In this document: positions 1,994 through 64,000 of the stretch, piece by piece
Position numbering within the stretch: position 1 is the stretch's first letter
Layout: the number at the start of each line of letters is the position of its first letter
Assembly (NCBI GenBank): GCA_037308085.1
Contig: CP147779.1
Coordinates: 1,792,001-1,856,000, forward strand
DNA: 64,000 bases
Direction: 5' to 3'
Source of the DNA: Promethearchaeati archaeon SRVP18_Atabeyarchaeia-1
GTDB taxonomy: Archaea > Asgardarchaeota > Atabeyarchaeia > Atabeyarchaeales > Atabeyarchaeaceae
The notes under the pieces: generated by a model
The model's input: the letters and a program-made list of their open reading frames with translations, nothing else
Databases searched by the model: none
Told to the model about the DNA's origin: nothing
Made by a program: the position numbers and the translations under genes

Positions 1994-2563
1994 TCACTTC
2001 TTCATTGAGAAGCCGATTAAGCCCAAGGATTCACCTACGCTGAGGTAGTTTCCCGTCATTGGATTCCAAGTTATGGCTTTCAGTCTTTTGAAATCGATTT
2101 TTCCTCTTTGATCCAAGACATTCTCGGAGACGTCAATGTTAACTACCTCCCCGACAAATAGGTCGTGAGACCCCAGCGCTATGATATTCCTGACCTTGCA
2201 TTCGATGCTCACCGGACATTCTGCTATTATTGGAGGCTTTACTTTCTTCGCCTTGATGGCTGTTAGCTTGGTATCCCTAAACTTGTCAGAGTTTCTGCCC
2301 GAGACCATGCCACAGTAGTCGGCCTCTCTCACGATGTCAGCTGTAGGTATGTTGACCACGTATTCCCCTGTCTTCCGTATTAACCCATTAGAGTAGCGTG
2401 GAGGTCCCACGGAGATTCCAACCTGTGGAGGATTTGAGCATATGTTTCCAGCCCACGCTAGTGTGATTATGTTGGGCTTGCCTCCTTCGTCTATGGACGT
2501 GACCAGGACTACGGGGGTTGGATAAAGAGCGGTGGATGGCTTCAACTCTTTTCTTGTAGACAT
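1994..2563 (-). CDS. Flavin reductase-like / flavoredoxin family protein (paralog of 595..1188)
   Basis: Same motifs and collinear with 595..1188 along its full length. Confidence 0.9.
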   Translation of the reverse strand: MSTRKELKPSTALYPTPVVLVTSIDEGGKPNIITLAWAGNICSNPPQVGISVGPPRYSNGLIRKTGEYVVNIPTADIVREADYCGMVSGRNSDKFRDTKLTAIKAKKVKPPIIAECPVSIECKVRNIIALGSHDLFVGEVVNIDVSENVLDQRGKIDFKRLKAITWNPMTGNYLSVGESLGLIGFSMKK

Positions 2564-2926
2564 CGATATTCCCCTTTCAATTCGGTTAGGTTAATGCTGA
2601 TTAGTTGAGAACTAATTTGCTTATGAGTGCTTGATCTATAAGAGGTCTCCTAGTAACAGAAGCCGTTTGTCTTGGAGGTTTCTGGATGCTGGAACTCTTC
2701 TATTTTTCCCGCCTTTGTGCAGACTAGATCATGCTTTCATTTCGGCTTCCGTTTCCTCGCTGGGTGGATTCAACGTTATATACTACAGGATCATACTCTG
2801 TATTGTCGCTGACAGTTATCGTCGTTGGCGCTGACTTGATGTTGAGTGCGCTTATTGGGTTCTCGATCGTCCCCTTCTGACCTTGTATTAGAATCCGTCG
2901 CGTCAAACTGTGGTGGCTAGGCAGAC

Positions 2927-3616
2927 ATGGTTCCAAATCTTGGTGAGCTGGCAAGCGAGCAAATTGACTTGCAAGGCAAGAGAACAAGGAGGGGACGGAT
3001 AAAGTATCGGAAGCTCTTCTCGAGGCGCTCAAAGAAGAAGAGACCAGAAACGATAGTCGGGGACATCAGAGCAGATAGCGGGGCCGAGGCCAAGGTAATC
3101 ACATGGCTGAAAGAGCACGATTTGGTTTTCGAAGCCCATGGGGCGATCCCACATTCAAGAAGGAAAGTCGATGCGAACAAGTTGGTTGAGGAAATTCTGT
3201 CTGGCTTCTCATCAGAGAGGAGGGAGCTCTTGGCGTCGAAGTTGAAATTGAAGAAGATCGAGAACAACAGGTCTATTGGTCGATATGATTTCAAGGTCGA
3301 AGGAACTAGCAGGAGCAATGGGAAACACGAAGTCTATTACATAGAGTATTGGGGATTGTACAATCCGAATGTGGAAGTCACCAAGGATAGTCTCAGGAAG
3401 TTGTACAATCGGCTACTGGTCAACTATACCCTAATCAAGAAGCCGCTGAAAGAGAAATACTACCGTGCAATTGGGCTCAACTTGATCTCGTTGACTAGAG
3501 CCAACTTGAAGAAGAAGTCTCTCGACGAGAAGCTTGGTTGCCTCCTGGATCTGGATCAGAACCACCTTATTTCAAAGTTCATGAGCAAAGAGAATGTTCC
3601 AGTCAAGAAAGAATAA
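2927..3616 (+). CDS. Hypothetical protein, probable PD-(D/E)xK-like nuclease fold
   Basis: S..E..V..WL, YDFKV, YYIEYWGL, K.KYY...GLNLISL pattern. Confidence 0.55.
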   Translation: MVPNLGELASEQIDLQGKRTRRGRIKYRKLFSRRSKKKRPETIVGDIRADSGAEAKVITWLKEHDLVFEAHGAIPHSRRKVDANKLVEEILSGFSSERRELLASKLKLKKIENNRSIGRYDFKVEGTSRSNGKHEVYYIEYWGLYNPNVEVTKDSLRKLYNRLLVNYTLIKKPLKEKYYRAIGLNLISLTRANLKKKSLDEKLGCLLDLDQNHLISKFMSKENVPVKKE

Positions 3617-3743
3617 GCTACATAAGAGAGAAAAGGAGAGATTAGAAGAGATGACAGCGGGAAGATCACGCCGAGTTCGGTCTTCTTACAGCAAGCGTGG
3701 CATGGCATGCTTCTGTATTGCATTTTAGGAGGAGAGGACAAGC

Positions 3744-4865
3744 ATGGGAATGCACGATCTTGAGACATCCGTGTTAGAGGCAAGCAAGAACATCCTGAAG
3801 ATAATCACTCATGGCGATAGAGCTCGCATACTGAGAAAAGAAGATGATGTTCTCCTTATTGGGGATCAGAGGGATCTAAGCCCCATTTATACTGAAACCT
3901 TGGCAAAGATCATCCGTGAATGGCAGAAGCAGAAGACCACGAAGGTTCATGTTCGATACTTGCCCAAACAGAGACCAGTCACTGATCTGAGACAGATTGA
4001 TCCGTCAGTAGGAACTCTGGCTGCCAAGGCGGACATCATAATAGGCACCTACTCGAACCCGGGTGAGGCGATCGTCAATCAGGAATCGCCAATACTCAAC
4101 AAAGCTTTCTTTTCTACGATTTTTGATAGAATGCGGAAGGACAACATACGGCTCTACGCTGTTGCGGGAAGACCTAACTTGCGCGTATTGGAAACACTCG
4201 CAAACAGTGACGCCATTGAAGAGACCAATGCGTTGTCAAAGCAGCTTAAGCGCTACCTTCAACATAAGTCAGACGAAAAGATGCAGGTTTACACTCTGAA
4301 AGAGGGAAGGTACGGCGATCCGCTGGAATTTGAGATTCCAGGACCGGAAATGGTTTCAGCCGACTACTTTGAGGCCAACGAGAATATCATTAACATCCCC
4401 TCTGGCGAAGTATTCTTTGAACCGGCTCCGGGTACAGCGAGTGGGAAAATCTACTTCAAGGAGGGAAGCTACTACCACTTGTTTGTTCCGATCAAGGGAA
4501 TGGTTATACTAGAGTTCAAGGATGGCGAGGTTGCCGATTGCCGAAGCCTCGGGCAAAAAGACGATGAGGTACTCAAATTCATGACGAAGCACTTTGAAAC
4601 AAAGGAAAACAGGCATTTGGCTGAAATGGGAATAGGCACATACATAGCGGCATCAAAGATCCCGATGGAGGACATGATCTACAACAGGACCATTCTGGAG
4701 AAGCTTCAAGGGTTCCATATAGCGTATGGGAGTTCTATTCACATAAAGGGAAAGCACGATGCTCCGGAGCACATAGACAACTGGGTCAAATACGGCGATG
4801 TCTACATCGGCGAAGATCACCTGATCTCGAAGGGCAAAGTAAACACGAGGCTACTTGGCGACTGA
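3744..4865 (+). CDS. Aminopeptidase, M29 / thermophilic metalloprotease-like
   Basis: NIPSGEVF, LAEMGIGT, EKLQGFHIAYG, HID metal-ligand motifs. Confidence 0.75.
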   Translation: MGMHDLETSVLEASKNILKIITHGDRARILRKEDDVLLIGDQRDLSPIYTETLAKIIREWQKQKTTKVHVRYLPKQRPVTDLRQIDPSVGTLAAKADIIIGTYSNPGEAIVNQESPILNKAFFSTIFDRMRKDNIRLYAVAGRPNLRVLETLANSDAIEETNALSKQLKRYLQHKSDEKMQVYTLKEGRYGDPLEFEIPGPEMVSADYFEANENIINIPSGEVFFEPAPGTASGKIYFKEGSYYHLFVPIKGMVILEFKDGEVADCRSLGQKDDEVLKFMTKHFETKENRHLAEMGIGTYIAASKIPMEDMIYNRTILEKLQGFHIAYGSSIHIKGKHDAPEHIDNWVKYGDVYIGEDHLISKGKVNTRLLGD

Positions 4866-8060: not shown

Positions 8061-8783
8061 TCAAGTTCTCAGGGCACTGGGTGTCTGAGATAGTTGCCTT
8101 TTGAGTTCCTTCCTGTCCAATTGAGCACCACAAAGTGGACATTGACCATGTTTCCGCAGATATTCGAGCAGATGCGCTCTGTGAGCAGGACCTCCACAGA
8201 AGGGGCACCATGTTGCCGGATCCCTGACTCTCAACTCCTTTTTGCATATCATACAGGCACCGACAAGGGCATTATCTCTACCCTCTTTTGGCATTGTTAC
8301 AGTTCCCTCATGTCCTATGGCCGCAGCCCGGATTATCTCGCCTGCGGGTAAGCTTTCACCGCAGTTTGGGCAGAAATGGGCGTTCTCAAACCTGAGGCTG
8401 GAGCCGCAATTGCCACATTTCGGCGGAAGGCGAACAACTCTGAATCCCAGTTTGAATCTAAACGCGGCGATCAAGTATAGACTCGTTGTTGATCACAGAT
8501 ATATGCTGGGAAGAGGGTTTCCTTCGAAAAGGATGGTCGCTAAAGGACCAGTGTCTAGTAAGATATCAAGAATTCCCCAACCTAGAAACCAAGGAAAAAA
8601 GCTTAGCAGTAAGAGGTAGTATGTCTTTCCCCGAGGCAGTGTTAGTGTAGCGGCGCAATTCGGGCACTTAGATTCTCTCCCGAACCAGTTGCGCCCAACG
8701 ACTGCAACGTACACGCTACAATTCGGGCACTTCAAAAATGTTGGTGGACCCTTTGGGCTTTCTGCATAGTCCTGCACAATCAT
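8061..8783 (-). pseudogene. Membrane protein (Zn finger-2TM-zinc ribbon-RING-like finger) interrupted by one in-frame TGA at 8493-8495
   Basis: ORFs 8493..8783 and 8061..8474 are in the same frame (...PSIYL-TGA-STTSLYLIAAF...); C-terminal CMIC-x12-CPFC-x4-H-x2-H-x10-CPLC. Confidence 0.6.
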
Positions 8784-21162: not shown

Positions 21163-21591
21163 ATGTTCCAGACTCCTGAATCTCTCAAGTGGGTGATTTC
21201 AACGAAAAGGTCGGTCCTTATCACGCGCTCGGTTATTGACAGCATTCTTACATATGCGAAGGTCCAGCATCCTAGGGAAGGAATCCTGCTCCTCAGCGGA
21301 AGGATAGATAGTGACGGAATCCAAGTCGACGAAGTTATTGTGCCTCCCCTCGCTGTCCATGGGTATGGCTTCTCGAGTTTTCCTTTCCAGATGCTTCCAA
21401 TAGATCTGTCCGTGGTAGGCACGGCGCATTCCCATCCTTCTGGAGTTCTCCGGCCATCGGTTGAAGATCTGAACCACTTCTACGGTAGAGTGATGGTCAT
21501 AACAGCGTACCCGTACGATTCCGAGAGCCAGATCGCAGTCTACGACAAAGCGGGGACGACCATAAAGTACGAGATAGAAAAAGGAGCATGA
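21163..21591 (+). CDS. JAMM/MPN+ (Mov34) metalloisopeptidase
   Basis: HPREGILLL (Glu) and HSHPSGVLRPSVED (HxH-x7-S-x2-D). Confidence 0.9.
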   Translation: MFQTPESLKWVISTKRSVLITRSVIDSILTYAKVQHPREGILLLSGRIDSDGIQVDEVIVPPLAVHGYGFSSFPFQMLPIDLSVVGTAHSHPSGVLRPSVEDLNHFYGRVMVITAYPYDSESQIAVYDKAGTTIKYEIEKGA

Positions 21592-40531: not shown

Positions 40532-41239
40532 GTGAGCTACAATATCCCGCAAGTGAATATAAGTCCGAACGGTGAGCTAATCCCAAACCCAGGCGAAAAC
40601 TTGGTATCAACATACAGAGACGTTCACTACGACAAATGGGAAGGGGAAATCTACATAACTGACCTACGACTCGTCTGGATCGGGCTACAGCACAAAGGCG
40701 GTCTGCTCGGAAAACTTGCCAAGGCGGCGGTCGTCGCAGGAGTAGCAGTCGCAGCCGGCTATGCCGCGAGCAAGGTTTCAGCGAGAGTAGGCATTCCCTC
40801 AAGAATAGGTGGCTTGGGCGGCGGTGCGCTCGCAGGGTTGACGGTAGCGTCCTTGATGAGCAAGCACCCGGACGGCTCGCCAACGACAATATCCGTTCCC
40901 TACGAGGTTGTGTCCAGCATCCAGATCGGAAAGAACAAAAACGAGCTAATACTGGCTACTGAGGTGGGTGGATTTACATTCCGGTTTGAGAAGGGTGGCG
41001 CAGACACGGTTGCGACGGTAGTTAAGGCTCAGCACCTCAATGCGACTAAAAGGGTCCAAGCACAAGCACAAGCCCCGGCAGCACCATCTTATCAGCAACC
41101 TCCTCCCTATCAGCAACCTGCACCGGCATATGCGCAACCGGCGCCTCAACGTGGCCAAGCTTTCTACTGTCCTCACTGTGGGACACCCCTCGAACCCGGC
41201 GCAAGGTTCTGCCATAACTGTGGTGCAAGAATCGACTGA
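40532..41239 (+). CDS. GRAM/PH-like domain protein with Gly-rich insert, PPxY-bearing Pro/Gln linker and C-terminal zinc ribbon
   Basis: GEIYITDLRLVW, FRFEKGG, QQPPPYQQP, CPHCG..GARFCHNCG. Confidence 0.75.
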   Translation: MSYNIPQVNISPNGELIPNPGENLVSTYRDVHYDKWEGEIYITDLRLVWIGLQHKGGLLGKLAKAAVVAGVAVAAGYAASKVSARVGIPSRIGGLGGGALAGLTVASLMSKHPDGSPTTISVPYEVVSSIQIGKNKNELILATEVGGFTFRFEKGGADTVATVVKAQHLNATKRVQAQAQAPAAPSYQQPPPYQQPAPAYAQPAPQRGQAFYCPHCGTPLEPGARFCHNCGARID

Positions 41240-53650: not shown

Positions 53651-54793
53651 TCAGACCGTTATTGGGTATCTCCCATATTCCTGTGCTTTCTTGAACATTG
53701 TGTCGATATTCTGTGGAGGCACGTCGGGTTGGATGTTGTGTGCGCCAGCCAGTATGTAGCCGCCGCTTGGACCCAGATCGTGTATTCGCCTTCTGACTTC
53801 CTGTTCGACCTCATTTTCGGTTCCCTTGGGCAGGGTGTATTGTGTGTCGATTCCTCCATGGTAGCATACGCGCTTGTCGTATTTTTCGACTAGATGCCGT
53901 GAATCCATGTCTTTTGCTCTCGGTTGAACCGGGTTCAGGATGTCCACGCCGACGTCGGCAAGTTCCTCGATTATGGGCTCAACTGAGCCACAGCTGTGAA
54001 ACTGAATCTTGGCTTTCTTCGCAAACCTCTTAAGATGGGAGATAAGATCCCTCAGCCTAGGCTTGACTAGTTTTCTCCAGAGTGCAGGCGACATAAGAAG
54101 GCCGTCCTGATGGCCGTAGTCATCTGCGCAGAGGACGATAGTGGCGTAGTCTCCTACCTCGATCAGATAAGCTTCCCAGAAGCGCTTGTTGATCTCCAGA
54201 GTTCTATCCAGCAAGGCGCTGGCAAACTCGGGGTCCGCTATGATGTCGTAGTAGAACTTGTTGAAACCCCTAAGCCAGACCGCCAGCTCCAACACACCCC
54301 CCAGGAACGTATCTGCTGTGACCGCTAGGCCACTCTCAAGGAAAACTTTCGCGCGCTTTCCGATATTGCTGAATCTTTCCTCATGTGGCTCGGGAGCCAC
54401 GTATCTCTCTATGTCTTCAATTGACTTGGCGCTGTACAGAGGCGCCTTATCCTCGACCAATTCGTAGTAGTATCCTTGGTACTGCCTTTTCAACGTTAGA
54501 CCAAACTCGTTGACTATCCATCCTTCTCCCCTTTTCACCTCGTCTTCTCTGGGTGGATTGGGTCGGATATGCCTGATGTCCACGCCGAAGCGCTCAAGAA
54601 TCTTCTCGTCTACGTCAACGAGTCCCTGCATCACATCCCAGATCTTGGACTCAACCACCCTGAATCCGAGGTGCTTCAGCAGGTTATCGTAGGCGGCTTT
54701 AGTGATGCCGCTTATCACCCCTCCAAGGTCAACTGGAACCCTATCCGGCTCCTTCCTGTCAATTGATAGTAGAACCCTATCGATATGTTGCAT
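53651..54793 (-). CDS. Uroporphyrinogen decarboxylase / MtaA-CmuA family methylcobamide methyltransferase
   Basis: PDRVPVDLGG, DDYGHQ, FHSCG, GGIDTQ, GGYIL..HNIQ; coupled to a corrinoid protein. Confidence 0.85.
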   Translation of the reverse strand: MQHIDRVLLSIDRKEPDRVPVDLGGVISGITKAAYDNLLKHLGFRVVESKIWDVMQGLVDVDEKILERFGVDIRHIRPNPPREDEVKRGEGWIVNEFGLTLKRQYQGYYYELVEDKAPLYSAKSIEDIERYVAPEPHEERFSNIGKRAKVFLESGLAVTADTFLGGVLELAVWLRGFNKFYYDIIADPEFASALLDRTLEINKRFWEAYLIEVGDYATIVLCADDYGHQDGLLMSPALWRKLVKPRLRDLISHLKRFAKKAKIQFHSCGSVEPIIEELADVGVDILNPVQPRAKDMDSRHLVEKYDKRVCYHGGIDTQYTLPKGTENEVEQEVRRRIHDLGPSGGYILAGAHNIQPDVPPQNIDTMFKKAQEYGRYPITV

Positions 54794-54797
54794 AATC

Positions 54798-55454
54798 TCA
54801 TCTTCCGATCAGACTCTTGCACAGTCTCACCGCTTCAACCGCGTCTTTGCCATAGGCGTCCGCTCCCACTTCTTGCGCATATGCCTGGTCGACGGCGCCG
54901 CCTCCAATGATGATCTTGAGCTTACCCCTGAGTCCTCGCTTCTCGAGTTCTTGTATTACTGTCTTCATCTCGCCCCTCGTTGTTGATAGGAGCGCTGACA
55001 TGCAGAGTATACCCGCCTTCTCAGTAGCCGCGGATTCAGCGAACCTCTGAGGAGGCACATCAGTACCCAAGTCGATGACCATAAAACCTTCAGGTCTAAG
55101 CATCAGGGTGACTATGTTCTTGCCGAGATCATGTATGTCTCCTCTAACGGTTCCTATTACCACAGTGCCCTTGGCCTCTGATAGTTTGCCTTGCCTGAGG
55201 ATGGGGCTCAGAATATCCAGTACTTTCTGCCCAACCACTCCGGCAAACATTAGCTCTGGGAGGTAGTAGACCCCCTTCTCATACTTGCTCCCTATCACTC
55301 CAAAGGCTTCAGAAATGCTCTTCACCAATTGCCCGGCGGGGGCTCTCTGCTCCAAGCATCTCCCTGCAACTTCTAGGGATTCTAATTCATTTGCCATGTC
55401 GATGCTGCTGATCAGCGAATCCCTCAGTTTCTCGGCTATGCTGGCTCGACTCAT
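54798..55454 (-). CDS. Corrinoid (B12-binding) protein
   Basis: YYLPELM, GTVRGDIHDLGKNIV (DxHxxG), MSALL, GGGAV, GADAY. Confidence 0.92.
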   Translation of the reverse strand: MSRASIAEKLRDSLISSIDMANELESLEVAGRCLEQRAPAGQLVKSISEAFGVIGSKYEKGVYYLPELMFAGVVGQKVLDILSPILRQGKLSEAKGTVVIGTVRGDIHDLGKNIVTLMLRPEGFMVIDLGTDVPPQRFAESAATEKAGILCMSALLSTTRGEMKTVIQELEKRGLRGKLKIIIGGGAVDQAYAQEVGADAYGKDAVEAVRLCKSLIGR

Positions 55455-55645: not shown

Positions 55646-57712
55646 ATGAAGCGCGCAAGATTCTGCGCCCTGCTAACCGTATCACTCGTCATACTTTCAA
55701 TCACATCTCCATATGCATCTTTTACTCCTCTTACTCCAGCATCTGGTGCATCTACCTGGCAGATATACCCCGCTTGGGCAGCAGTTAACCTGCTGACACC
55801 AGGCGCGAACGTGGACAGACAGGCCTGGGCTTTGCTGATCGCAAACGCCTTCAGCCAATTCGGAATTTCCGCCACGAGGCAGATAGTTCCGTGGCCCACT
55901 GCATACAGCAGGATGTTGACTCCAGACCCATCAGTCGTCGGCAAAAGCTGGGCTGATGGCGGCTTCGACATCGGCTTCATAGGGTACGCCCTGACCCCTG
56001 ATACCGATCCATATTCATTCTTTCATCCCTACGACGGGCACGGGTTCTTCACCGGCGGGAACTACTACCTTTGGAATAACACTGAGAATGACCAGCTGCT
56101 AGAGAGTATTCGGAGTGAAATGAATTCGACGAAGAGGCTTGAGTACATCAGGCAATGGCAAGAACTGGCTTACGACGAGCTCCCCAGCATTACTCTCTTC
56201 TACACCAAGGATGTGGTCGCCTTCAAGCCGAGCTTTCAGTCAACGCCATTCTCAACATACTATTACCCGTTGTGGCCCAGTGTCGAGCAGTGGAACGACA
56301 CCTTGGGCTCGACGAATGTTACCGTCGCCCAGATAGGATCCTTTGGTCCTGGCGGCGGCGAAGGCCTTGTCCCATACCTTACCACGTCATACTACGACCT
56401 GACAGTGTATGGACCGATCTACGGTGAACTTGGTGGCTTAGGTATGCTCATGAGGAACACGTCGATGGCGATGGTACCCTACATGGCTTACGGCAACTAC
56501 ACTACTGCCGCCGGCGGCAAGAACTGGACCTTCTGGATAAGACCTGGCATCCACTTCCAGAACGGTGAGGAACTCGATGCGCGAGACTATGTCTACACAC
56601 TGAGGTATGAGATGACCCCCACCTCTGGATCAGCTGGCTCAGGAGTATACGCCTACATAACCAGCATCATCTGTGGTGCAGATTTCGGTGCGGGCATTGC
56701 AGCGGGCTACGGCAACCACAGCGTCTACTGGGCTGGCGAGGCTGGAACGCCAGGAGCGGCTCTGCCTTACAACAAGTATGAATTCCATTGCGACGAGCAA
56801 GCCGCGTGGGCTTTGACGACGGTAGATATTGGAGGCCTTGCGATCATGCCAGCATCAGTTCTTGTGAACGCTAGCACTTTCCCAGACTACAGCACTTGGA
56901 ACCCATCAAATGCACCTTTTATGCAGAGCACATCATTCAACACTGGAGCCTCAGGCACATACAGGTACTATGCCAAGAACGGGACATTCATGGCAGCGAG
57001 AAGTGGACCCTTCGGTGCTGGTCCATACCAGTGGGCCGACTACAACACAGGGACCGGTACAGCACACCTGACAAAGTTCGACGGCTACTTCCGCCGCGCC
57101 GCGCTGGAGTCTGAGGGCATCTACAGGTTCACGGACTACTACGTCGTGCACATCGGCAGTGTTACAGCTGCAATAGCAGCTCTACAGGCTGGCAGCGTTC
57201 AGGTACTTGACAGCCAATACCACGTGGAGGCCTCTTTGGATTCACTGAACCTAGCATGGGCTAGTTGGGTTTCCTTTGATAGCTATGGCGTACAGGAGAT
57301 GGGCTTCAACATGCGCCACCCGATTTGGGGCACAGGTTTGGGAACACCTCTTGGACAGTCGGACGCATCACAGGCAAAGGCAGCTGCTTACCATGTTAGA
57401 CATGCAATCGAGTACTTGATCCCGAAGGACCAGATAATCAAGAACATACTCCACAACTTCGGCAGCTACGGAATCACGACCCCTGTCACGAGAGGCAACC
57501 TGGGCTTCGACGCCAGTATTGTCCCTCGCAACTACACGTATCCGGTGGCCATGCTCTTGGCTAAGGCGGAGTTTGAGGCTGCAGGATACACATTTGTACC
57601 GCCGCCACAGCATGGGCCCTGGTACAACTATGGTCCGTTGATCGCTGTTGTTGGGCTGGCTGGAATCATAGTCGTAGGAGGGCTCTACGCCTTTAGACCC
57701 CGCAGGCGGTAG
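55646..57712 (+). CDS. Family 5 (OppA/DppA-like) solute-binding protein, circularly permuted, C-terminal TM anchor
   Basis: Signal peptide; WTFWIRPGIHFQNGEELDARD, GAGPY, GFNMRHP, VRHAI; TM plus RPRRR at the C-terminus. Confidence 0.85.
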   Translation: MKRARFCALLTVSLVILSITSPYASFTPLTPASGASTWQIYPAWAAVNLLTPGANVDRQAWALLIANAFSQFGISATRQIVPWPTAYSRMLTPDPSVVGKSWADGGFDIGFIGYALTPDTDPYSFFHPYDGHGFFTGGNYYLWNNTENDQLLESIRSEMNSTKRLEYIRQWQELAYDELPSITLFYTKDVVAFKPSFQSTPFSTYYYPLWPSVEQWNDTLGSTNVTVAQIGSFGPGGGEGLVPYLTTSYYDLTVYGPIYGELGGLGMLMRNTSMAMVPYMAYGNYTTAAGGKNWTFWIRPGIHFQNGEELDARDYVYTLRYEMTPTSGSAGSGVYAYITSIICGADFGAGIAAGYGNHSVYWAGEAGTPGAALPYNKYEFHCDEQAAWALTTVDIGGLAIMPASVLVNASTFPDYSTWNPSNAPFMQSTSFNTGASGTYRYYAKNGTFMAARSGPFGAGPYQWADYNTGTGTAHLTKFDGYFRRAALESEGIYRFTDYYVVHIGSVTAAIAALQAGSVQVLDSQYHVEASLDSLNLAWASWVSFDSYGVQEMGFNMRHPIWGTGLGTPLGQSDASQAKAAAYHVRHAIEYLIPKDQIIKNILHNFGSYGITTPVTRGNLGFDASIVPRNYTYPVAMLLAKAEFEAAGYTFVPPPQHGPWYNYGPLIAVVGLAGIIVVGGLYAFRPRRR

Positions 57713-57897
57713 GGAAGCCCGCCCTGAACGATGCTGGAACGCGCGAGGAGCTGCAGGAGCAGAAGATCTGAATTAGATCAGAGAATCGACAATCACAGGT
57801 CGGATCTCGGCTCATGAATTTATAAGCATCTGCAGAACACCATTTATCCGTGGAAGGGACAGCGACGTAGGGGGTCTGCAAGTTCCCCGTCCAGAAT

Positions 57898-60381
57898 GTG
57901 GGAGCGGTTCAGGAAAAGGGGTTCAAATTGAGAAGAGCTACGTATTCGCCGCCAAGGTTGGCTGCAGCTCTAACGCTCGTGGTGATTGCGTCCTCATTCT
58001 CTTTACCAGTATTCGCAGCAATGGCTGCGGCTCAGGGAACCGGAGCAACCGTAGATCCCGTAATAAGAATCTACCTCCTAGTTTCGCCAGGGGCCATGAG
58101 GCAGTCCACGGCACAGGTTATAGCGAACTGTCTGTCGGAACTTGGGATTCAAGCACAGGTGATCTCAGCTGACTGGGCAACTATCAATGGCAGAGCCTTC
58201 TCTCCGGCCCCCAGCATGATCGGGAAAACTTATGAGCAAGGAGGATTCGACGCTCTGCTCACAGACTGGCTCTACAATCCTGACCCTAATCCTTATCCCA
58301 TGTTTCACAGTAGCCAGATGCCTCCGACTGGGCAGAACTACTACCTCTGGAATAACACAATGGCGGACATGCTCGCGTATAACATGACAAGGGTTATTGA
58401 TCGCCCCACGCAGCTGCAATGCGCTGAGATGTGGCAGGAAGTAGCCTACGAGGAACTGCCCTCAATCGCAATATGCTATGACCATGGTGTAGTTGCATTT
58501 CGCCCGAACCTCAATTCGACGCCATTCGAAGCGTGTTACTATCCTAGGTGGCCGGGTGTTGAGCGCTGGAGCTTCACCTCATCTCCTATGACCAGCGTTA
58601 CCGTAGCCCAGCCTGGGGCGTGCCCGTATTGGGGGCTGACGCCGTACCATTCAAACTACTACAGTGACATGACTGGTTATGCCCCAATCTACGGCGAGCT
58701 TGGCGCCTACGGTCTGCTCATTAGGAGTCTGAACTCGACTTTGATGGAGCCTTACATGGCCTACGGGAACTACACGATGTCGCCTGATGGGAGAAACTGG
58801 ACTTTCTGGATACGACCTGGAATAAGGTTCCATAACGGCGAGGAACTTGATGCAAGAGACGTGGCGTACACCTACAGGTATGTCATGACTCCAAGCTGGA
58901 ATTCTGGCTGGTACTCCTACGTCAAGGGGATACTTGGAGCCAACAGTAGCGTGTATTGGGCAGGTGAATCAGGGACAGCGGGGGCAGGCATGCCGTACAA
59001 CAAGTTTGAGGTGCACTTTGACCTACCGCAGCCGTGGGCTTTCTTCCAGGCGGACATCGGAGGCGGGGCAATTCTTCCCGCGTCCGTAATTGTGAACTCG
59101 AGTAGTGGGATACCCGATCTCAGTGCCTGGAATCCGGACCCCGTAGGCACGGCTGGGTTTGTGTGGACATCCTTCGTCACTGGAAGCGCCGACACTTACT
59201 GGTACTATGCCAAAAACGGAACGCAGTACACGTCTTCGGGTCCGATGGGGGCGGGTCCATACAAGTGGAGCTCCTATGATCCAAACACGGAGACAGTGCA
59301 TCTCATCAAGTTCGATGGCTATTTCAATAAGGCCGTGCTGGAAGCTGGAGGAGCATTTGGAATAACCGACTACTACGTGAAGCACATCGCCGATGCCTAT
59401 TCAGCCATCTCATGCTTGACAAGCAACACGGTCCAAGTTCTCGATTCTAGCTATCACCTCGGAACATACGTAGCATCTTTAGATCCCGGCTGGAGCCGAA
59501 TAATCTCGTATCAAGGATACCAAGTGACAGAGCTGGGCTTCAACATGCGCCACCCAATCTTGGGCACAGGGCTGGGTACCCCCTTAGGTATAACCAATGC
59601 AAGTATGGCGGCTGAGGCAGCGAAGCACGTCAGACATGCACTTGAGTACTTAATCCCAAAGGACCAGATAATCTCGTCAATCCTAAACGGCTATGGCGAG
59701 CCTGGCCTTACGCCGCCTATTATGAGATCAATGCCAGGATTCAACTACGCCATTACCCCACGCAACGGTACATTGTCGAATGTCAAGGTCCTCGCTATGA
59801 ACGAGTTGGAGGCTGCGGGATACACGTTTATACAGGGACAAGGATATTGGCCGAATTATGATCTCCTTATTATTACGATATCTCTTGTCAGTATAACCTT
59901 CGCCTCGCTACTCCTCGGAGTGGGCCTAATACGAAGGAGAAGCAGGTTGAATGCCGACGTTCGAGGCCAAAGAGGAAACCCGCGCATTGAAACTCCAATA
60001 AGCCAGCCTGAAACGCTGGAACAGGGCGAACCGGAGAAACCAATTGAAACCTCGGTTCCACGACAAACTACAATGCCGTGCCCGCGTTGCGGAGCAATTT
60101 CCAGGGATCCTGCCGCGCAGTACTGCAAATACTGCGGGGCACTTCTGGGAGGCGGTTCAAGAGGGATGGAGATTCAGGCCAAGGGAAGAACATTCGCGCT
60201 AAAGGGCAGATGTATGGTTTGCAATCTTCCAATCGGGAAAAGTGATGAGGTTGTCTGGTGCCCCCGATGTGGAAACGCTGCGCACAGGACACACTTGCTC
60301 GAATGGTTGCACGTCAAAAGCTACTGTCCGGTCTGCCGCGCACCCATCAACCAAAGAGACCTTCTCTCTTCACGTGATTGA
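57898..60381 (+). CDS. Permuted family 5 solute-binding domain-TM-zinc ribbon-RING-like finger fusion
   Basis: Paralog of 55646..57712 up to the TM; then CPRC..YCKYC and CMVC-x12-CPRC-x4-H-x2-H-x3-W-x6-CPVC. Confidence 0.85.
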   Translation: MGAVQEKGFKLRRATYSPPRLAAALTLVVIASSFSLPVFAAMAAAQGTGATVDPVIRIYLLVSPGAMRQSTAQVIANCLSELGIQAQVISADWATINGRAFSPAPSMIGKTYEQGGFDALLTDWLYNPDPNPYPMFHSSQMPPTGQNYYLWNNTMADMLAYNMTRVIDRPTQLQCAEMWQEVAYEELPSIAICYDHGVVAFRPNLNSTPFEACYYPRWPGVERWSFTSSPMTSVTVAQPGACPYWGLTPYHSNYYSDMTGYAPIYGELGAYGLLIRSLNSTLMEPYMAYGNYTMSPDGRNWTFWIRPGIRFHNGEELDARDVAYTYRYVMTPSWNSGWYSYVKGILGANSSVYWAGESGTAGAGMPYNKFEVHFDLPQPWAFFQADIGGGAILPASVIVNSSSGIPDLSAWNPDPVGTAGFVWTSFVTGSADTYWYYAKNGTQYTSSGPMGAGPYKWSSYDPNTETVHLIKFDGYFNKAVLEAGGAFGITDYYVKHIADAYSAISCLTSNTVQVLDSSYHLGTYVASLDPGWSRIISYQGYQVTELGFNMRHPILGTGLGTPLGITNASMAAEAAKHVRHALEYLIPKDQIISSILNGYGEPGLTPPIMRSMPGFNYAITPRNGTLSNVKVLAMNELEAAGYTFIQGQGYWPNYDLLIITISLVSITFASLLLGVGLIRRRSRLNADVRGQRGNPRIETPISQPETLEQGEPEKPIETSVPRQTTMPCPRCGAISRDPAAQYCKYCGALLGGGSRGMEIQAKGRTFALKGRCMVCNLPIGKSDEVVWCPRCGNAAHRTHLLEWLHVKSYCPVCRAPINQRDLLSSRD

Positions 60382-60513
60382 GCAACAGCTAGGCAGCGTA
60401 ATCATTGAGAGACCTGCTTATTCTTCTCCCTCCAGGGACTTTCGACGTGTCCATGCCTGCGCAACTTGTCTGGGCCTCCATCGCTTCGAGAGAACATGCG
60501 TTGCGCCTTGTGC

Positions 60514-61518
60514 TCATGTAAGCACGCCTTGGCTGGGGCCGTTTTGACGCTTTTTGTGGCTTCTCTCTTTCCGGGGCGCGCCTTCACTGGGCTTACGTTG
60601 GCTTGGAAGCAATTGTCTCAGGCGGTCCCTTTGAACTAGCAGTTCGATTCTCTGCATTGCTCTTTCTACGTATTCCTGGTTGATGTCGATGCCTATGTAG
60701 TGTCTACCGGTGTTTCTCGCTGCAAGGCAAGTCGCACCTGCGCCGCAGAACGGATCCAAGACCACTTCTCCCTTGAAGGTGTAAAGCTGTATGCACCTGT
60801 AGGGCAGCTCGACAGGAAAAGGCGCCGGGTGCCCTACTTTCTCTGCAGACTCTGGCTGGAATTCCCATACGCTTTTGGTGTATTCGAGAAACTCCTCCTT
60901 TGATATTGTAGGTTCTCTTCCCTTGTCACTTCTCCCAAATTTGCCTTTAGAGAAGACTAGTATGTACTCGTGTGTGTCCCTTAGGGTTGGATTTGTGGGT
61001 GATAGCCAGCTTCCCCACGCGGTTGAGGCGCCAGCGCCTGCTCCCTTGTTCCATATGACTTCTCCTCTCATCAGGAAGCCGACTTCTGTCATGACGTCTA
61101 TCACGAACTTGTGGTACGGAATGTAGGGCTTCCTCCCAACGTTTGCGATGTTGATGCAGGCCCTGCCTCCATTGACGAGTACTCTGTTTGTCTCGGAGAA
61201 GACGCCTTTCAACAATCCTGAGTATTCCTCAAGGTTCAGGTCTTCGTCGTATTCCTTTCCCACATTGTAGGGAGGTGAGGTGACCATGAGGTGGACGCTG
61301 CTATCCGGGATACTGTTCATCTTTCTTGAATCGCTGCACAGAACTCTGTCCAGTACTTCGGGAGGAATAGGATTCTCAATTTCGGGTTCGCCCTCTGCTA
61401 CTTTTAGGTCTTGGTACAGCTTGCCCCGGTAGAATGGGGTGGAGTCGTGGCACTCCCTCTTCGAAACGCCGAACCTGCTAGTCTTGGTTCCCCTCACCAT
61501 AAGGATCTTCCTCTCCAC
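60514..61518 (-). CDS. Orphan N4-C/N6-A DNA methyltransferase (beta class)
   Basis: TSPPY (motif IV) before HPAPFP and VLDPFCGAG (motif I). Confidence 0.9.
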   Translation of the reverse strand: MERKILMVRGTKTSRFGVSKRECHDSTPFYRGKLYQDLKVAEGEPEIENPIPPEVLDRVLCSDSRKMNSIPDSSVHLMVTSPPYNVGKEYDEDLNLEEYSGLLKGVFSETNRVLVNGGRACINIANVGRKPYIPYHKFVIDVMTEVGFLMRGEVIWNKGAGAGASTAWGSWLSPTNPTLRDTHEYILVFSKGKFGRSDKGREPTISKEEFLEYTKSVWEFQPESAEKVGHPAPFPVELPYRCIQLYTFKGEVVLDPFCGAGATCLAARNTGRHYIGIDINQEYVERAMQRIELLVQRDRLRQLLPSQRKPSEGAPRKERSHKKRQNGPSQGVLT

Positions 61519-61787
61519 TCGTTGCCTAAGAACTCACTCTTCAATACCGATCAGATCAAGTTAGAATACAACACGTCTAAATGGTTATCTCTAGAGACTC
61601 TAGTGTAATATTCGTGAACAAGATTCGATCTAGCAAAAAGCAGAGCGTCTCGTGCCGCTCCTCTCAAAACGCCGGTCTCTGCTTGGATATCATGCTCTCG
61701 TTGATTTCCCGTAATGTCCGTCGTCCCACGTATTCTCCCCTTGCTTCAGCGAAGCCAGCTTCAGGTTAGATTATTACAGACGCGGGC

Positions 61788-62009
61788 CAGAAATCCCACG
61801 CCCTTTAGAGGTGGGGTGAGTGGGGGGTATGAATAGGGGAACGTGCATCTGTCTCTGCAATAGGCACGGTGCGTGCCGAATCTACGCCTGCGGAGATCGA
61901 AGCCGCTACTCCCGCGCCCCTGGGCGCGTCAACGGTGCCCCAAACGCGCCAAGGCAAGCTCGGTCCATGAGCCAGGAAGCCAACACGCCTTAGCGCGTTG
62001 GCAGCTCAC
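61788..62009 (+). mobile_element. Gene-less IS200/IS605-type mini element (PATE/MITE) with omegaRNA-like scaffold, copy 2
   Basis: Left hairpin region ATCCCACGCCCTTTAGAGGTGGGGT; core GAATCTACGCCTGCGGAGATC...AGGCAAGCTCGGTCCATGA; right end GAAGCCAACACGCCTTAGCGCGTTGGCAGCTCAC ending in TCAC. Confidence 0.7.
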
Positions 62010-62093
62010 TACTCTAGGCAACTGTCACGTGTCGCAGAAGCAATGTATTTATGGATGAAGCCGGATAGTTGTATTGCCGCAGTTACTTGTAGC

Positions 62094-64000
62094 ATGGGGG
62101 GAACGCAGTTAAAGCGCGGCGAGAAACGTTATGCGCTTCTATTTGTGGCAATGCTGATCTTCACTGGGCTCTCCTACCAATTCGCGCCCAGTACGTTGAA
62201 TACTTCTACTCCAAGCCAAGAGCACTCAAGAACCCCATACATATCTACGCCTTTCAGCATAACCCTGCTGGTACCTGGCGCAAACCCGCAGAGACAAGCT
62301 TGTGCGCAAATGGTCGCGGCCAACATGCGCAGCATTGGCATACAAGTGCAGACGGTCATTGCTTCATGGGCTCAGACCTACTCGAGGGTTCTGACGCCTG
62401 ATCAGTATGTGATTGGGAAGCCCTATGATCAGGGCGGTTTCGACATGGTATTTATTGGATATTCTCTGGGTCCCGATCCAGATCCATACACCTTGTACCA
62501 TAGCAGTCAATTCGCCCCGTATGGAGAGAACTACTACCTCTGGAACGACTCATACAACGATGCATTATGCTACAACATAACGCACACAGTCGACCCTACA
62601 CTGCGTCTTCAATACGTTCATCAATGGCAGGCATACGCCTACAACTGGACACCTAGCGTGGCAATCTACTACAACAAAGAGGTCGTAGCCTTCAAGCCAA
62701 GCTTCCAGTCAGCACCATTCCAGAATAACCACTATCCACAGTGGCCTGGCGTTGAGCAATGGAACGACACAGCGGGCTCAACCAACGTCAAGATTGCGCA
62801 GATAGGACCCTTTGGTCCTGGCGGTGGCCAGGGTCTTGTCCCATACCTTACCTCGTCATACTACGACTTGACGGCCTACGGACCCATCTTCGGTGAACTT
62901 GGCGGCTCTGGGCTGCTTACCAGGGATCAGTCAGGAGCAATGGTGCCCTACGTGGCTTACGGCAACTACACAGCTACCGCTGGCGGCAAGAACTGGACCT
63001 TTTGGATTCGTCCTGGAATCACGTTCCAGGATGGCACGCCACTTGATGGTAGGGACTTTGTCTATACGCTGAGATACGAGATGACTCCTGCCTCCGGATC
63101 GGCTGGAACAGGAGCGTACAACTACGTGTCTGGCATCATCTGTGGTTCCGATGTCAGCGCTGGTATAGCCGCGGGATATGGCAATAGAACTGTCTACTGG
63201 GCAGGTGAGCAGGGAACACCAGGAGCGGGGCTGCCGTTGAACTACTATGAGGTTCACGTCGACCAAGAAGCTGCTTGGGCTTACACGGAAAGTGACATCG
63301 GAGGTTCCTCAATCCTGCCGGCAGAAGCCTTGGTAAACAGCAGCGCAGGAGTCCCAAACTACAGCGCCTGGAATCCATCTAATGCGGCTGTCCTTCAAGG
63401 CACATCGTACAACACTGGAACGTCAGGAACTTATGTGTACTATGATAAAACAGGATCATTGATGCCGGCCAGATCTGGGCCTTTCGGTGCTGGTCCGTAC
63501 AAGTGGATTAGCTACGACACAGGCACGTTTACTTCGCATGAGCAGAAGTTCAGTGGCTACTTCAGACGCTCTGCCCTTGAGGCCGCGGGTGTCTACAGGT
63601 TCACGGACTACTACGTCGAGTACATCAGCAGCGCTACGGCTGCAATAGCTGCTCTGCAGTCTGGCAGTGTTCAGGTGCTCGACTCACAATACCACTTGGA
63701 GAACTTTTTGGGTTCACTCAATCCTTCGTGGTCTAGTCTGACTTCCTACGATGGGTACGGCGTACAGGAGATGGGTTTCAACTTGCGCCACCCGATCTGG
63801 GGGACTGGTCTGGGCACTCCTCTAGGTCAGTCTAATCCAGCGAGGGCAGCCGAAGCCGCTTGGCACGTTAGACGCGCAATAGAGTACCTAGTTCCGAAGG
63901 ACACCATAATCAAGCAGGTTCTCAATGGGTATGGCACATATGGTATCACAACCCCGATTACCCGGAAGACCCTCGGCTTTGACACGAGTATCGTTCCTCG
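62094..64000 (+). CDS. Third permuted family 5 solute-binding protein (partial, runs off the right edge)
   Basis: Not in the ORF track; read by hand from ATG 62094 (MGGTQLKRGEKRYALLFVAML...LLVPGANPQRQA...); long near-identical DNA stretches shared with 55646..57712. Confidence 0.85.
   Translation, partial: MGGTQLKRGEKRYALLFVAMLIFTGLSYQFAPSTLNTSTPSQEHSRTPYISTPFSITLLVPGANPQRQACAQMVAANMRSIGIQVQTVIASWAQTYSRVLTPDQYVIGKPYDQGGFDMVFIGYSLGPDPDPYTLYHSSQFAPYGENYYLWNDSYNDALCYNITHTVDPTLRLQYVHQWQAYAYNWTPSVAIYYNKEVVAFKPSFQSAPFQNNHYPQWPGVEQWNDTAGSTNVKIAQIGPFGPGGGQGLVPYLTSSYYDLTAYGPIFGELGGSGLLTRDQSGAMVPYVAYGNYTATAGGKNWTFWIRPGITFQDGTPLDGRDFVYTLRYEMTPASGSAGTGAYNYVSGIICGSDVSAGIAAGYGNRTVYWAGEQGTPGAGLPLNYYEVHVDQEAAWAYTESDIGGSSILPAEALVNSSAGVPNYSAWNPSNAAVLQGTSYNTGTSGTYVYYDKTGSLMPARSGPFGAGPYKWISYDTGTFTSHEQKFSGYFRRSALEAAGVYRFTDYYVEYISSATAAIAALQSGSVQVLDSQYHLENFLGSLNPSWSSLTSYDGYGVQEMGFNLRHPIWGTGLGTPLGQSNPARAAEAAWHVRRAIEYLVPKDTIIKQVLNGYGTYGITTPITRKTLGFDTSIVP

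Follow-up and report, generated by a model that had tools for sequence, protein, structure and literature searches.

The stretch of DNA analysed here (the window, 64,000 nucleotides of the genome of Promethearchaeati archaeon SRVP18_Atabeyarchaeia-1, an Asgard archaeon whose genome is represented by one contig, C1, of 2,808,651 bp) contains a gene for a family 5 solute-binding protein (SBP) that is anchored in the membrane and ends in a RING finger. The gene of this SBP5-RING protein (P0001) is a single unbroken open reading frame (ORF) at 57898..60381 (+), coding for 827 amino acids (aa) from a GTG start at 57898, or for 817 aa from a TTG start at 57928; the public record of the protein has 817 aa, in agreement with the TTG start, upstream of which lies a G-rich stretch. 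The uninterrupted 827-aa ORF described in an initial annotation of the window was thus recovered at the same place, and a full-length ortholog (P0006) is available for the whole gene. Whichever of the two starts is used, an Arg-rich n-region is followed by the hydrophobic core of a signal peptide at aa 21-39 (57958..58014, +), which is apparent in the sequence and in the hydropathy scan, has an equivalent N-terminus in the ortholog and agrees with the signal peptide proposed initially. The parts of P0001 follow each other in the order signal peptide, permuted SBP_bac_5 ectodomain, transmembrane (TM) helix, linker, zinc ribbon and RING finger, and a protein built in this way probably serves as a membrane ubiquitin ligase with the shape of a receptor, a putative function read from its sequence.

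The extracellular domain of P0001 (aa 44-655; 58027..59862, +) belongs to SBP_bac_5, i.e., the OppA/DppA/NikA-type binding proteins of cluster C. Its Pfam score of 140.9 bits (E 7.4e-41) lies far above the cut-off of 32.4, and the AlphaFold2 (AF2) model of the ectodomain (pLDDT 93.2, pTM 0.92) shows the two-lobed fold of solute-binding proteins as a prediction, with Foldseek matches between E 1e-12 and 1e-9 to NikZ, DppA and AppA (E about 1e-12) and to OppA. The Foldseek matches cover the ectodomain in part only, as is expected when an order-dependent aligner meets a permuted domain. Because the part of the SBP_bac_5 profile that is normally C-terminal (positions 291-361 out of 368) matches first, at 58069..58305 (+; C1:1850069-1850305), and the canonical N-terminal two-thirds (positions 3-283) match behind it, at 58747..59838 (+), and because the phmmer alignments to PDB sequences place aa 67-209 on residues 372-503 of AppA (1xoc) and aa 277-385 on residues 51-156 of 8upi, the ectodomain is, judging from these alignments, a circular permutant of the OppA/DppA fold in which the canonical C-terminal residues, about 130 in number, were placed first. 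The family 5 domain of about 600 aa with many N-x-S/T sequons that had been proposed for P0001 was found again, with the correction that its segments do not stand in the canonical SBP_bac_5 order. Eleven sequons were counted in the ectodomain compared to 4.4 +/- 1.9 in composition-preserving shuffles, of which 6 in 2000 reached this number, and the cytoplasmic tail has none; this distribution fits an ectodomain that would be outside the cell and a tail that would be inside.

A single TM helix was located by the hydropathy scan at aa 657-675 (59866..59922, +), and the anchor is common to the five tail-less paralogs of P0001 described below. It is followed by a positive-inside stop-transfer patch, RRRSR (59932..59946, +), evident from the sequence, the R-R-R of which is kept in P0006 and in a further homolog, the metagenome fragment P0020; one TM helix followed by RRRSR had also been claimed at the outset. 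Between the patch and the zinc ribbon lies a linker (aa 684-726; 59947..60075, +) that is likely disordered, as had been suspected: it is poorly conserved, with 23% identity between orthologs, and the pLDDT of the tail model is lower at the start of the tail. Signal peptide, one TM helix, positive patch, sequons on the outside only and zinc fingers on the inside together describe a type-I topology with a cytosolic RING-H2 finger, and in this predicted arrangement the putatively N-glycosylated ectodomain would face the exterior, whereas linker, ribbon and RING would face the cytoplasm. The type-I architecture of P0001 and its reality are thus supported by the sequence features.

The C4 zinc ribbon (aa 727-749; 60076..60144, +) was recognized by Pfam and by the conservation of its cysteines, which follow the pattern C-x2-C-x11-C-x2-C over aa 728-748 and bear out the zinc ribbon of the initial annotation. 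When the tail (aa 690-827) was scored alone, DZR and Zn_ribbon_3 reached 26.0 and 25.2 bits, both slightly below their cut-offs; the four cysteines are kept in P0006, P0020 and many paralogs. A reading of this ribbon as a ubiquitin-binding finger of the NZF/RanBP2 type was considered and dropped, as it found no Pfam support up to E 1 and the spacing is one residue off.

The RING-H2-like finger (aa 771-812; 60208..60333, +) has eight ligands of the type C4-H2-C2 in the pattern C-x2-C-x12-C-x2-C-x4-H-x2-H-x10-C-x2-C, with Trp802, and its assignment draws on Pfam, on matches to PDB sequences, on the RING protein of the ubiquitin operon of the same genome and on the model. All eight ligands are invariant in 21 paralogs and in the orthologs. 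The tail scored alone matched Prok-RING_1 with 29.4 bits, just over the cut-off of 29.1, and phmmer with the whole of P0001 against PDB sequences returned RNF24 (E 2e-6), EL5 (E 1e-3) and Arkadia, each matched in the tail. With the 83-aa RING of the ubiquitin operon the finger shares 47% identity (E 2e-16). In the AF2 model of the tail (aa 715-827, built from a paralog alignment) pLDDT is 94-97 across the finger, and Foldseek superimposed this model on RNF165 (5ulk_C; 1.1 Å over 46 columns, TMt 0.82) and EL5 (1iym; 1.7 Å over 49 columns, TMt 0.72), with further RING matches to RNF38, Rad18, Ring1B and APC11, so that the finger adopts a RING fold in the predicted model. The RING-like finger with Trp at the E2-contact position that had been noted initially is consequently seen again in the ligands, in Trp802 and in the modelled fold, and sequence, predicted fold and kinship with the operon RING support its assignment as a RING. 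Matches of the tail to archaeal RING clusters in the feature atlas, all below 0.9, serve as leads only. For the whole tail of ribbon and RING, the top Foldseek E-values belong to subunits of GATOR2/SEA and IFT-A, coat-like proteins of eukaryotes in which a ZnF and a RING likewise follow each other in a C-terminal tail.

The residues by which RING ligases contact the E2 ubiquitin-conjugating enzyme are present in P0001 as Val773, Trp802 and Pro810, and Arg813 (60334-60336), next to the last cysteine, is the linchpin. In Caldiarchaeum subterraneum the activity of the small operon RING protein srfp as an E3 ubiquitin ligase is impaired by mutation of I30, W58 and R69 (PMC5654768), and we infer by motif, not by an alignment to srfp, that these residues correspond in position to Val773, Trp802, Pro810 and Arg813 of P0001. 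For the predicted complex of the cognate E2 with the RING (alignment residues 48-113) the score was 0.28, the mark being 0.32, and the result was counted neither way.

Several features of the finger weigh against its being a ligase module. Measured against the RING consensus C-x2-C-x(9-39)-C-x(1-3)-H-x(2-3)-[CH]-x2-C-x(4-48)-C-x2-C, ligand 4 is Cys and not His, and the gap between ligands 4 and 5 is 4 residues versus 2-3, which is PHD-like; the tail alone remains just under the cut-off of zf-RING_2 (27.0 bits versus 27.3), and scoring of the whole protein leaves all RING models below cut-off. The linchpin also varies among paralogs: the operon RING has N at this position, and the ortholog P0006 has H. 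The non-canonical ligand pattern, the marginal Pfam scores and the variability of the linchpin among the 28 RING-tailed ORFs of the genome, together with fold relatives that include the non-ligase tails of GATOR2 and IFT-A, would suit a tail that acts as a non-catalytic zinc-finger adaptor, binding proteins, ubiquitin, E2 or ESCRT (endosomal sorting complex required for transport) components in order to sort, tether or mark surface proteins. Such an adaptor is nevertheless rather unlikely in our estimation: the E2-contact positions (Val/Ile, the aromatic residue and Cys-Pro) are nearly invariant among paralogs, the closest matches in structure and sequence are active RING-H2 E3 ligases, and the family includes the RING encoded with ubiquitin, E2 and E1, of a type that is active as an E3 in other archaea.

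If the assembly were chimeric at the TM junction, or if the fusion were a recent and accidental read-through that is not under selection, P0001 would be an artefact or a decaying gene. This explanation can draw on a contig of a deep wetland run (Logan contig X2 record 2), which counts against an intact gene because it lacks one base at 58031 and has an additional T after 59119, an indel pair that would break the frame of the ectodomain in that population, with stops from codon 52, and on the occurrence of the fusion in a single genus. As far as contig data go, these indels may be either a variant of the strain or an error of assembly; they are absent from the X3 contigs (same sample, other run) and from X1 (source run). 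Both junctions are spanned, with zero differences, by contigs from a second study: X2 record 7 extends over 59615-60083 and includes the TM helix, and X3 record 17 extends over 59948-60600 and includes linker, ribbon, RING and stop. The genome itself, moreover, is a single 2.81-Mb contig.

The exhaustive phmmer search of 1.84 billion representatives revealed the ortholog P0006 (792 aa), which is 61% identical to P0001, aligned over aa 20-823, and is encoded in a metagenome-assembled genome (MAG) of the same genus (G003, NCBI GCA_019058575.1). Synteny is kept there in the order URO-D methyltransferase, B12-binding protein, SBP5-RING and N6_N4 methylase. The metagenome fragment P0020, truncated by its contig with the frame open to the contig edge, contributes the last part of an ectodomain together with TM helix, ribbon and RING. 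The same fusion is accordingly present in three independent assemblies, at 55-61% protein identity, with 12 of 12 zinc ligands kept in the orthologs. With the contigs that bridge it, the syntenic ortholog and the third fragment, the TM junction is no assembly chimera. Identity of the orthologs amounts to 67% in the ectodomain and 69% in the RING, against the 23% of the linker, and this domain-wise conservation indicates, as far as sequences can, folded domains under purifying selection joined by a flexible spacer. Intact zinc ligands and domain-specific conservation speak against a decaying gene as well, and on this evidence we regard an artefact or a gene in decay as highly improbable.

P0001 and P0006 group together with 100/100 support in the maximum-likelihood tree, separate from the tail-less paralogs, and this points to a single fusion event. 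When 400 Asgard genomes were scanned with a junction-spanning query (aa 540-827), scoring at most six candidates per genome, the fusion, taken as a match on either side of the junction within one frame, was found only in its own genome and in G003, a scan in which weak fusions may be missed; the complete genome of a sister genus (G002) has tail-less copies only. The RING tail alone was matched in 139 of the 400 genomes. The search for SBP_bac_5-TM-RING architectures across Asgard proteomes that had been suggested for P0001 has thus added a second genome of the same genus and none beyond that genus among the 400. From its distribution the fusion is apparently a young, lineage-specific invention and not a general Asgard feature, and because it is confined to one genus among 400 genomes the lineage as a whole can do without it, which counts against the E3 reading given below.

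Asgard archaea encode ubiquitin, E1 ubiquitin-activating and E2 enzymes, RING, JAB and ESCRT-I/II genes. The genome of P0001 combines at one locus the genes of VPS28, UEV-Vps23 (UQ_con and Vps23_core), JAB, the 83-aa RING, ubiquitin, a UBC-type E2 and a ThiF-type E1, so that a genome devoid of ubiquitin and E2 can be dismissed: ubiquitin, E1, E2, JAB and ESCRT-I genes are all present. The operon RING is encoded at C1:330916-331167, ubiquitin (up to Gly-Gly) at C1:331445-331699, the E2 at C1:331839-332255 and the E1 at C1:332362-333300. The ubiquitin of this operon has the C-terminus GG-ND, and the operon RING, which sits between JAB and the Ub-E2-E1 genes, passes the zf-RING_2 cut-off of 27.3 with 29.6 bits. 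The gene of P0001 lies 1.5 Mb from this operon.

The 28 ORFs of the genome with this RING finger carry it always at the C-terminus, about half of them behind TM helices and many with the same ribbon. They constitute a large lineage expansion, with clusters at 2.016-2.031 Mb and 2.154-2.180 Mb. The RING tails of the genome sit on arrestin, HEAT, FG-GAP propeller, PPC, CarboxypepD_reg and unannotated modules, and in metagenome proteins the ribbon-RING tail stands behind FG-GAP propellers, DUF5122 propellers, fn3, PPC and CarboxypepD_reg; a word-indexed homolog search with the tail returned P0001 itself and one FG-GAP protein only. By these comparisons the SBP fusion appears as one young member of a wider theme of surface domain, TM helix, ribbon and RING.

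The occurrence of the same ribbon-RING tail behind many unrelated surface ectodomains suggests a generic module with a sensor outside and a ligase inside, and the architecture is that of the eukaryotic ectodomain-TM-RING E3 ligases. P0001 could in this case be a ligand-gated receptor E3, the RING of which is activated by ligand-driven dimerisation or clustering, as in RING E3 ligases that become active as dimers, and acts on substrates unrelated to the oligopeptide (Opp) transporter. Solute-binding proteins are, however, usually monomers that dock on permeases; the long unconserved linker speaks against a rigid coupling, and a substrate is not indicated. We consider this form of gating doubtful.

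The genome contains six SBP_bac_5 paralogs and no others, three of which lie in the window (55646-64000). All six end with a C-terminal TM anchor, the RING tail being found on P0001 only, and they share the permuted order, with the C-terminal profile segment, where detectable, ahead of positions 1-283. Many relatives of about 600 aa with the same permuted segment order are found in metagenomes. The paralog directly upstream of P0001 (P0002, 688 aa; 55646..57712, +) consists of the permuted SBP5 domain and the TM anchor and is tail-less, as established by sequence comparison and by the tree; it is 51% identical to P0001 and stops directly after the TM helix with the C-terminus RPRRR, much as the initial annotation had stated in calling it the same protein ending after the TM. 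Because its cytoplasmic stub RPRRR contains no lysine, P0002 is an unlikely substrate for ubiquitination at lysine, and the earlier idea that the tail-less paralogs are the substrates of P0001 is weakened.

The sole ABC (ATP-binding cassette) operon of the genome of the OppC_N and oligo_HPY type is oppB-oppC-oppD-oppF (C1:2275207-2279335), which is divergent to the tail-less SBP5 paralog o2272731. Several binding proteins per translocator are common in Opp systems. Since this is the only Opp operon of the genome and binding proteins commonly share a translocator, OppBCDF would be the obvious docking partner of P0001 and a more concrete candidate target than the tail-less paralogs, although the sharing of the translocator is drawn from these two considerations. 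Following oppF at 16 nt, on the same strand, is a TM-HEAT-RING gene whose finger belongs to this RING family as well (C1:2275207-2280350 for operon and RING gene together). This adjacency of Opp and RING genes was given little weight as support, as in the two nearest genomes, G002 and G003, no such gene comes after oppF.

On balance we lean, by a modest degree, towards P0001 as a membrane-anchored RING E3 that works with the cognate E2 and is most plausibly targeted by its SBP domain through ligand-dependent docking on OppBC. The finger would recruit the single canonical E2~ubiquitin of the genome to the inner face of the membrane and help to pass ubiquitin on to lysine residues, either in proteins close by or among the six in its own tail; autoubiquitination of the tail would be as possible as ubiquitination of the transporter. 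The ectodomain would set the place and time of ligase action: liganded and closed, it may dock on the only OppBCDF translocator like any solute-binding protein of its class, and docking would place the RING beside the cytoplasmic faces of the transporter. Ligand occupancy could in this manner lead to ubiquitination and turnover of the transporter or the binding protein via the Ub-ESCRT or proteasome machinery encoded elsewhere. We infer E3 activity, ligand binding, OppBC docking and the identity of the substrate from the domains and their relatives, and a ligand-dependent action on the single OppBCDF transporter would follow from these steps taken together. Set against this proposal, no ABC transporter genes adjoin P0001 in its neighbourhood, and the single TM helix offers no obvious route for conformational signalling. 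The interpretation of P0001 as a receptor E3 in the initial annotation is partly supported.

A more specific version would make P0001 a substrate-occupancy sensor of the single oligopeptide ABC importer, which, when loaded, docks on OppBC so that its tail ubiquitinates the transporter or itself and ESCRT or proteasome turnover ensues. We regard this version as improbable. If true, it would represent an archaeal one-polypeptide forerunner of the nutrient-induced down-regulation of surface transporters by ubiquitin in eukaryotes, and would provide the first concrete pair of membrane cargo and E3 for the Asgard ubiquitin-ESCRT system.

To our knowledge, no fusion of a solute-binding protein to an E3 has been described in any domain of life, the receptor-type design of ectodomain, TM helix and RING has so far been described for ligases of eukaryotes only, and published archaeal biochemistry has so far been limited to small soluble operon RINGs. 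Our literature searches found no archaeal ectodomain-TM-RING protein and no SBP-E3 fusion, within an incomplete coverage that is not proof of absence. P0001 is in this respect a concrete candidate for a membrane E3 of the Asgard ubiquitin system, and suggests that a receptor-type E3 layout can arise via simple domain shuffling in a prokaryote. An ectodomain fold that can be screened with ligands and one plausible docking partner, OppBCDF, make ubiquitin control of archaeal surface transport directly testable.

Among the characterized archaeal systems, srfp of C. subterraneum is an active E3 in vitro (PMC5654768), and a Helarchaeia cascade of E1, E2 and RING ubiquitinates UEV-Vps23 in vitro (bioRxiv 10.1101/2023.07.25.550441). 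The RING of P0001 belongs to the same family as these proteins and shares the ligand pattern and the E2-contact positions, and the genes of cognate ubiquitin, E1, E2 and JAB are present in its genome. Unlike the soluble, operon-encoded srfp proteins of about 80-100 aa, it forms the C-terminus of a type-I surface protein of 827 aa, stands behind a zinc ribbon and is encoded far from the operon; P0001 is thus no small stand-alone protein beside ubiquitin, E2 and E1.

In its layout P0001 may be likened to the PA-TM-RING E3 ligases (RNF43/ZNRF3, GRAIL/RNF128 and RNF13; PMC3905715 for ZNRF3/RNF43), which have a signal peptide, an extracellular binding domain, a single TM helix and a cytosolic finger of the RING-H2 type and bring the ligase beside surface proteins engaged by the ectodomain. 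P0001 differs from them by an SBP_bac_5 ectodomain in place of PA and by the extra zinc ribbon, and, as a PA domain found no Pfam match in it, P0001 is no member of their family and is alike in layout only. Because the sequences are unrelated beyond the RING, the resemblance is best explained by convergence or independent domain shuffling and not by orthology.

Both the sequence and the predicted fold of the ectodomain resemble those of the OppA/DppA/NikA-type binding proteins (AppA 1xoc, NikZ 4oet, DppA 1dpp), and one paralog stands beside oppBCDF. Permutation, the cytoplasmic ribbon-RING tail and the lack of adjacent transporter genes set P0001 apart from these proteins. Anchoring of solute-binding proteins in the membrane, and not a free periplasmic form, is usual in archaea.

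According to PMC3517545, ubiquitination of permeases in fungi is induced by substrate, and arrestin-type adaptors recruit Rsp5. A coupling of nutrient availability at the surface to transporter ubiquitination, hypothetical for P0001, would be a functional analogy to this system only. In the fungal system a soluble HECT ligase acts via adaptors, whereas the putative ligase of P0001 would be fused to the transporter's own binding protein. The genome of P0001 also has arrestin-ribbon-RING fusions, which may be compared to the fungal arrestin adaptors.

The remaining genes around P0001 include the paralog P0003 (61998..64000, +, continuing beyond the end of the window; 952 aa in the genome), which is tail-less, has no RING and contains a further two repeated modules ahead of its TM anchor. 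The other three SBP_bac_5 paralogs were located by the genome profile search at C1:1383888-1386377, 2272731-2274758 and 2479791-2481821. Immediately upstream of the SBP5 genes lies a pair coding for a methyltransferase of the URO-D type and a corrinoid protein that binds B12 (53651-55454, -), and the same pair is found at 2371-4159 of locus L033 beside the SBP5-RING ortholog of the same-genus MAG. The N6_N4 DNA methylase comes after the P0001 gene here and one gene further away in that MAG.

Three more distant genes of the window had been proposed as hints of a wider membrane-ubiquitin network. The first, a protein of 137 aa (8061-8474, -), consists of a zinc ribbon and a RING of the same family according to Pfam; the label of a second TM-RING does not hold for it, as the hydropathy scan revealed no TM helix and, by that scan, this ribbon-RING protein is soluble. 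Pfam confirmed the second, the JAMM gene at 21163, as a Prok-JAB of 142 aa (21163-21591, +) with the motif HSHPSG...S..D; it stands alone, directly after the gene of an FeoB-like membrane GTPase of 710 aa. The third, the PPxY protein at 40532, is likewise present (235 aa; 40532-41239, +), and its sequence shows a central Gly/Ala-rich hydrophobic stretch and a Q/P-rich segment in which the motif reads PPPY. At its C-terminus this protein has a C4 zinc ribbon like that of the RING tails, without the RING.

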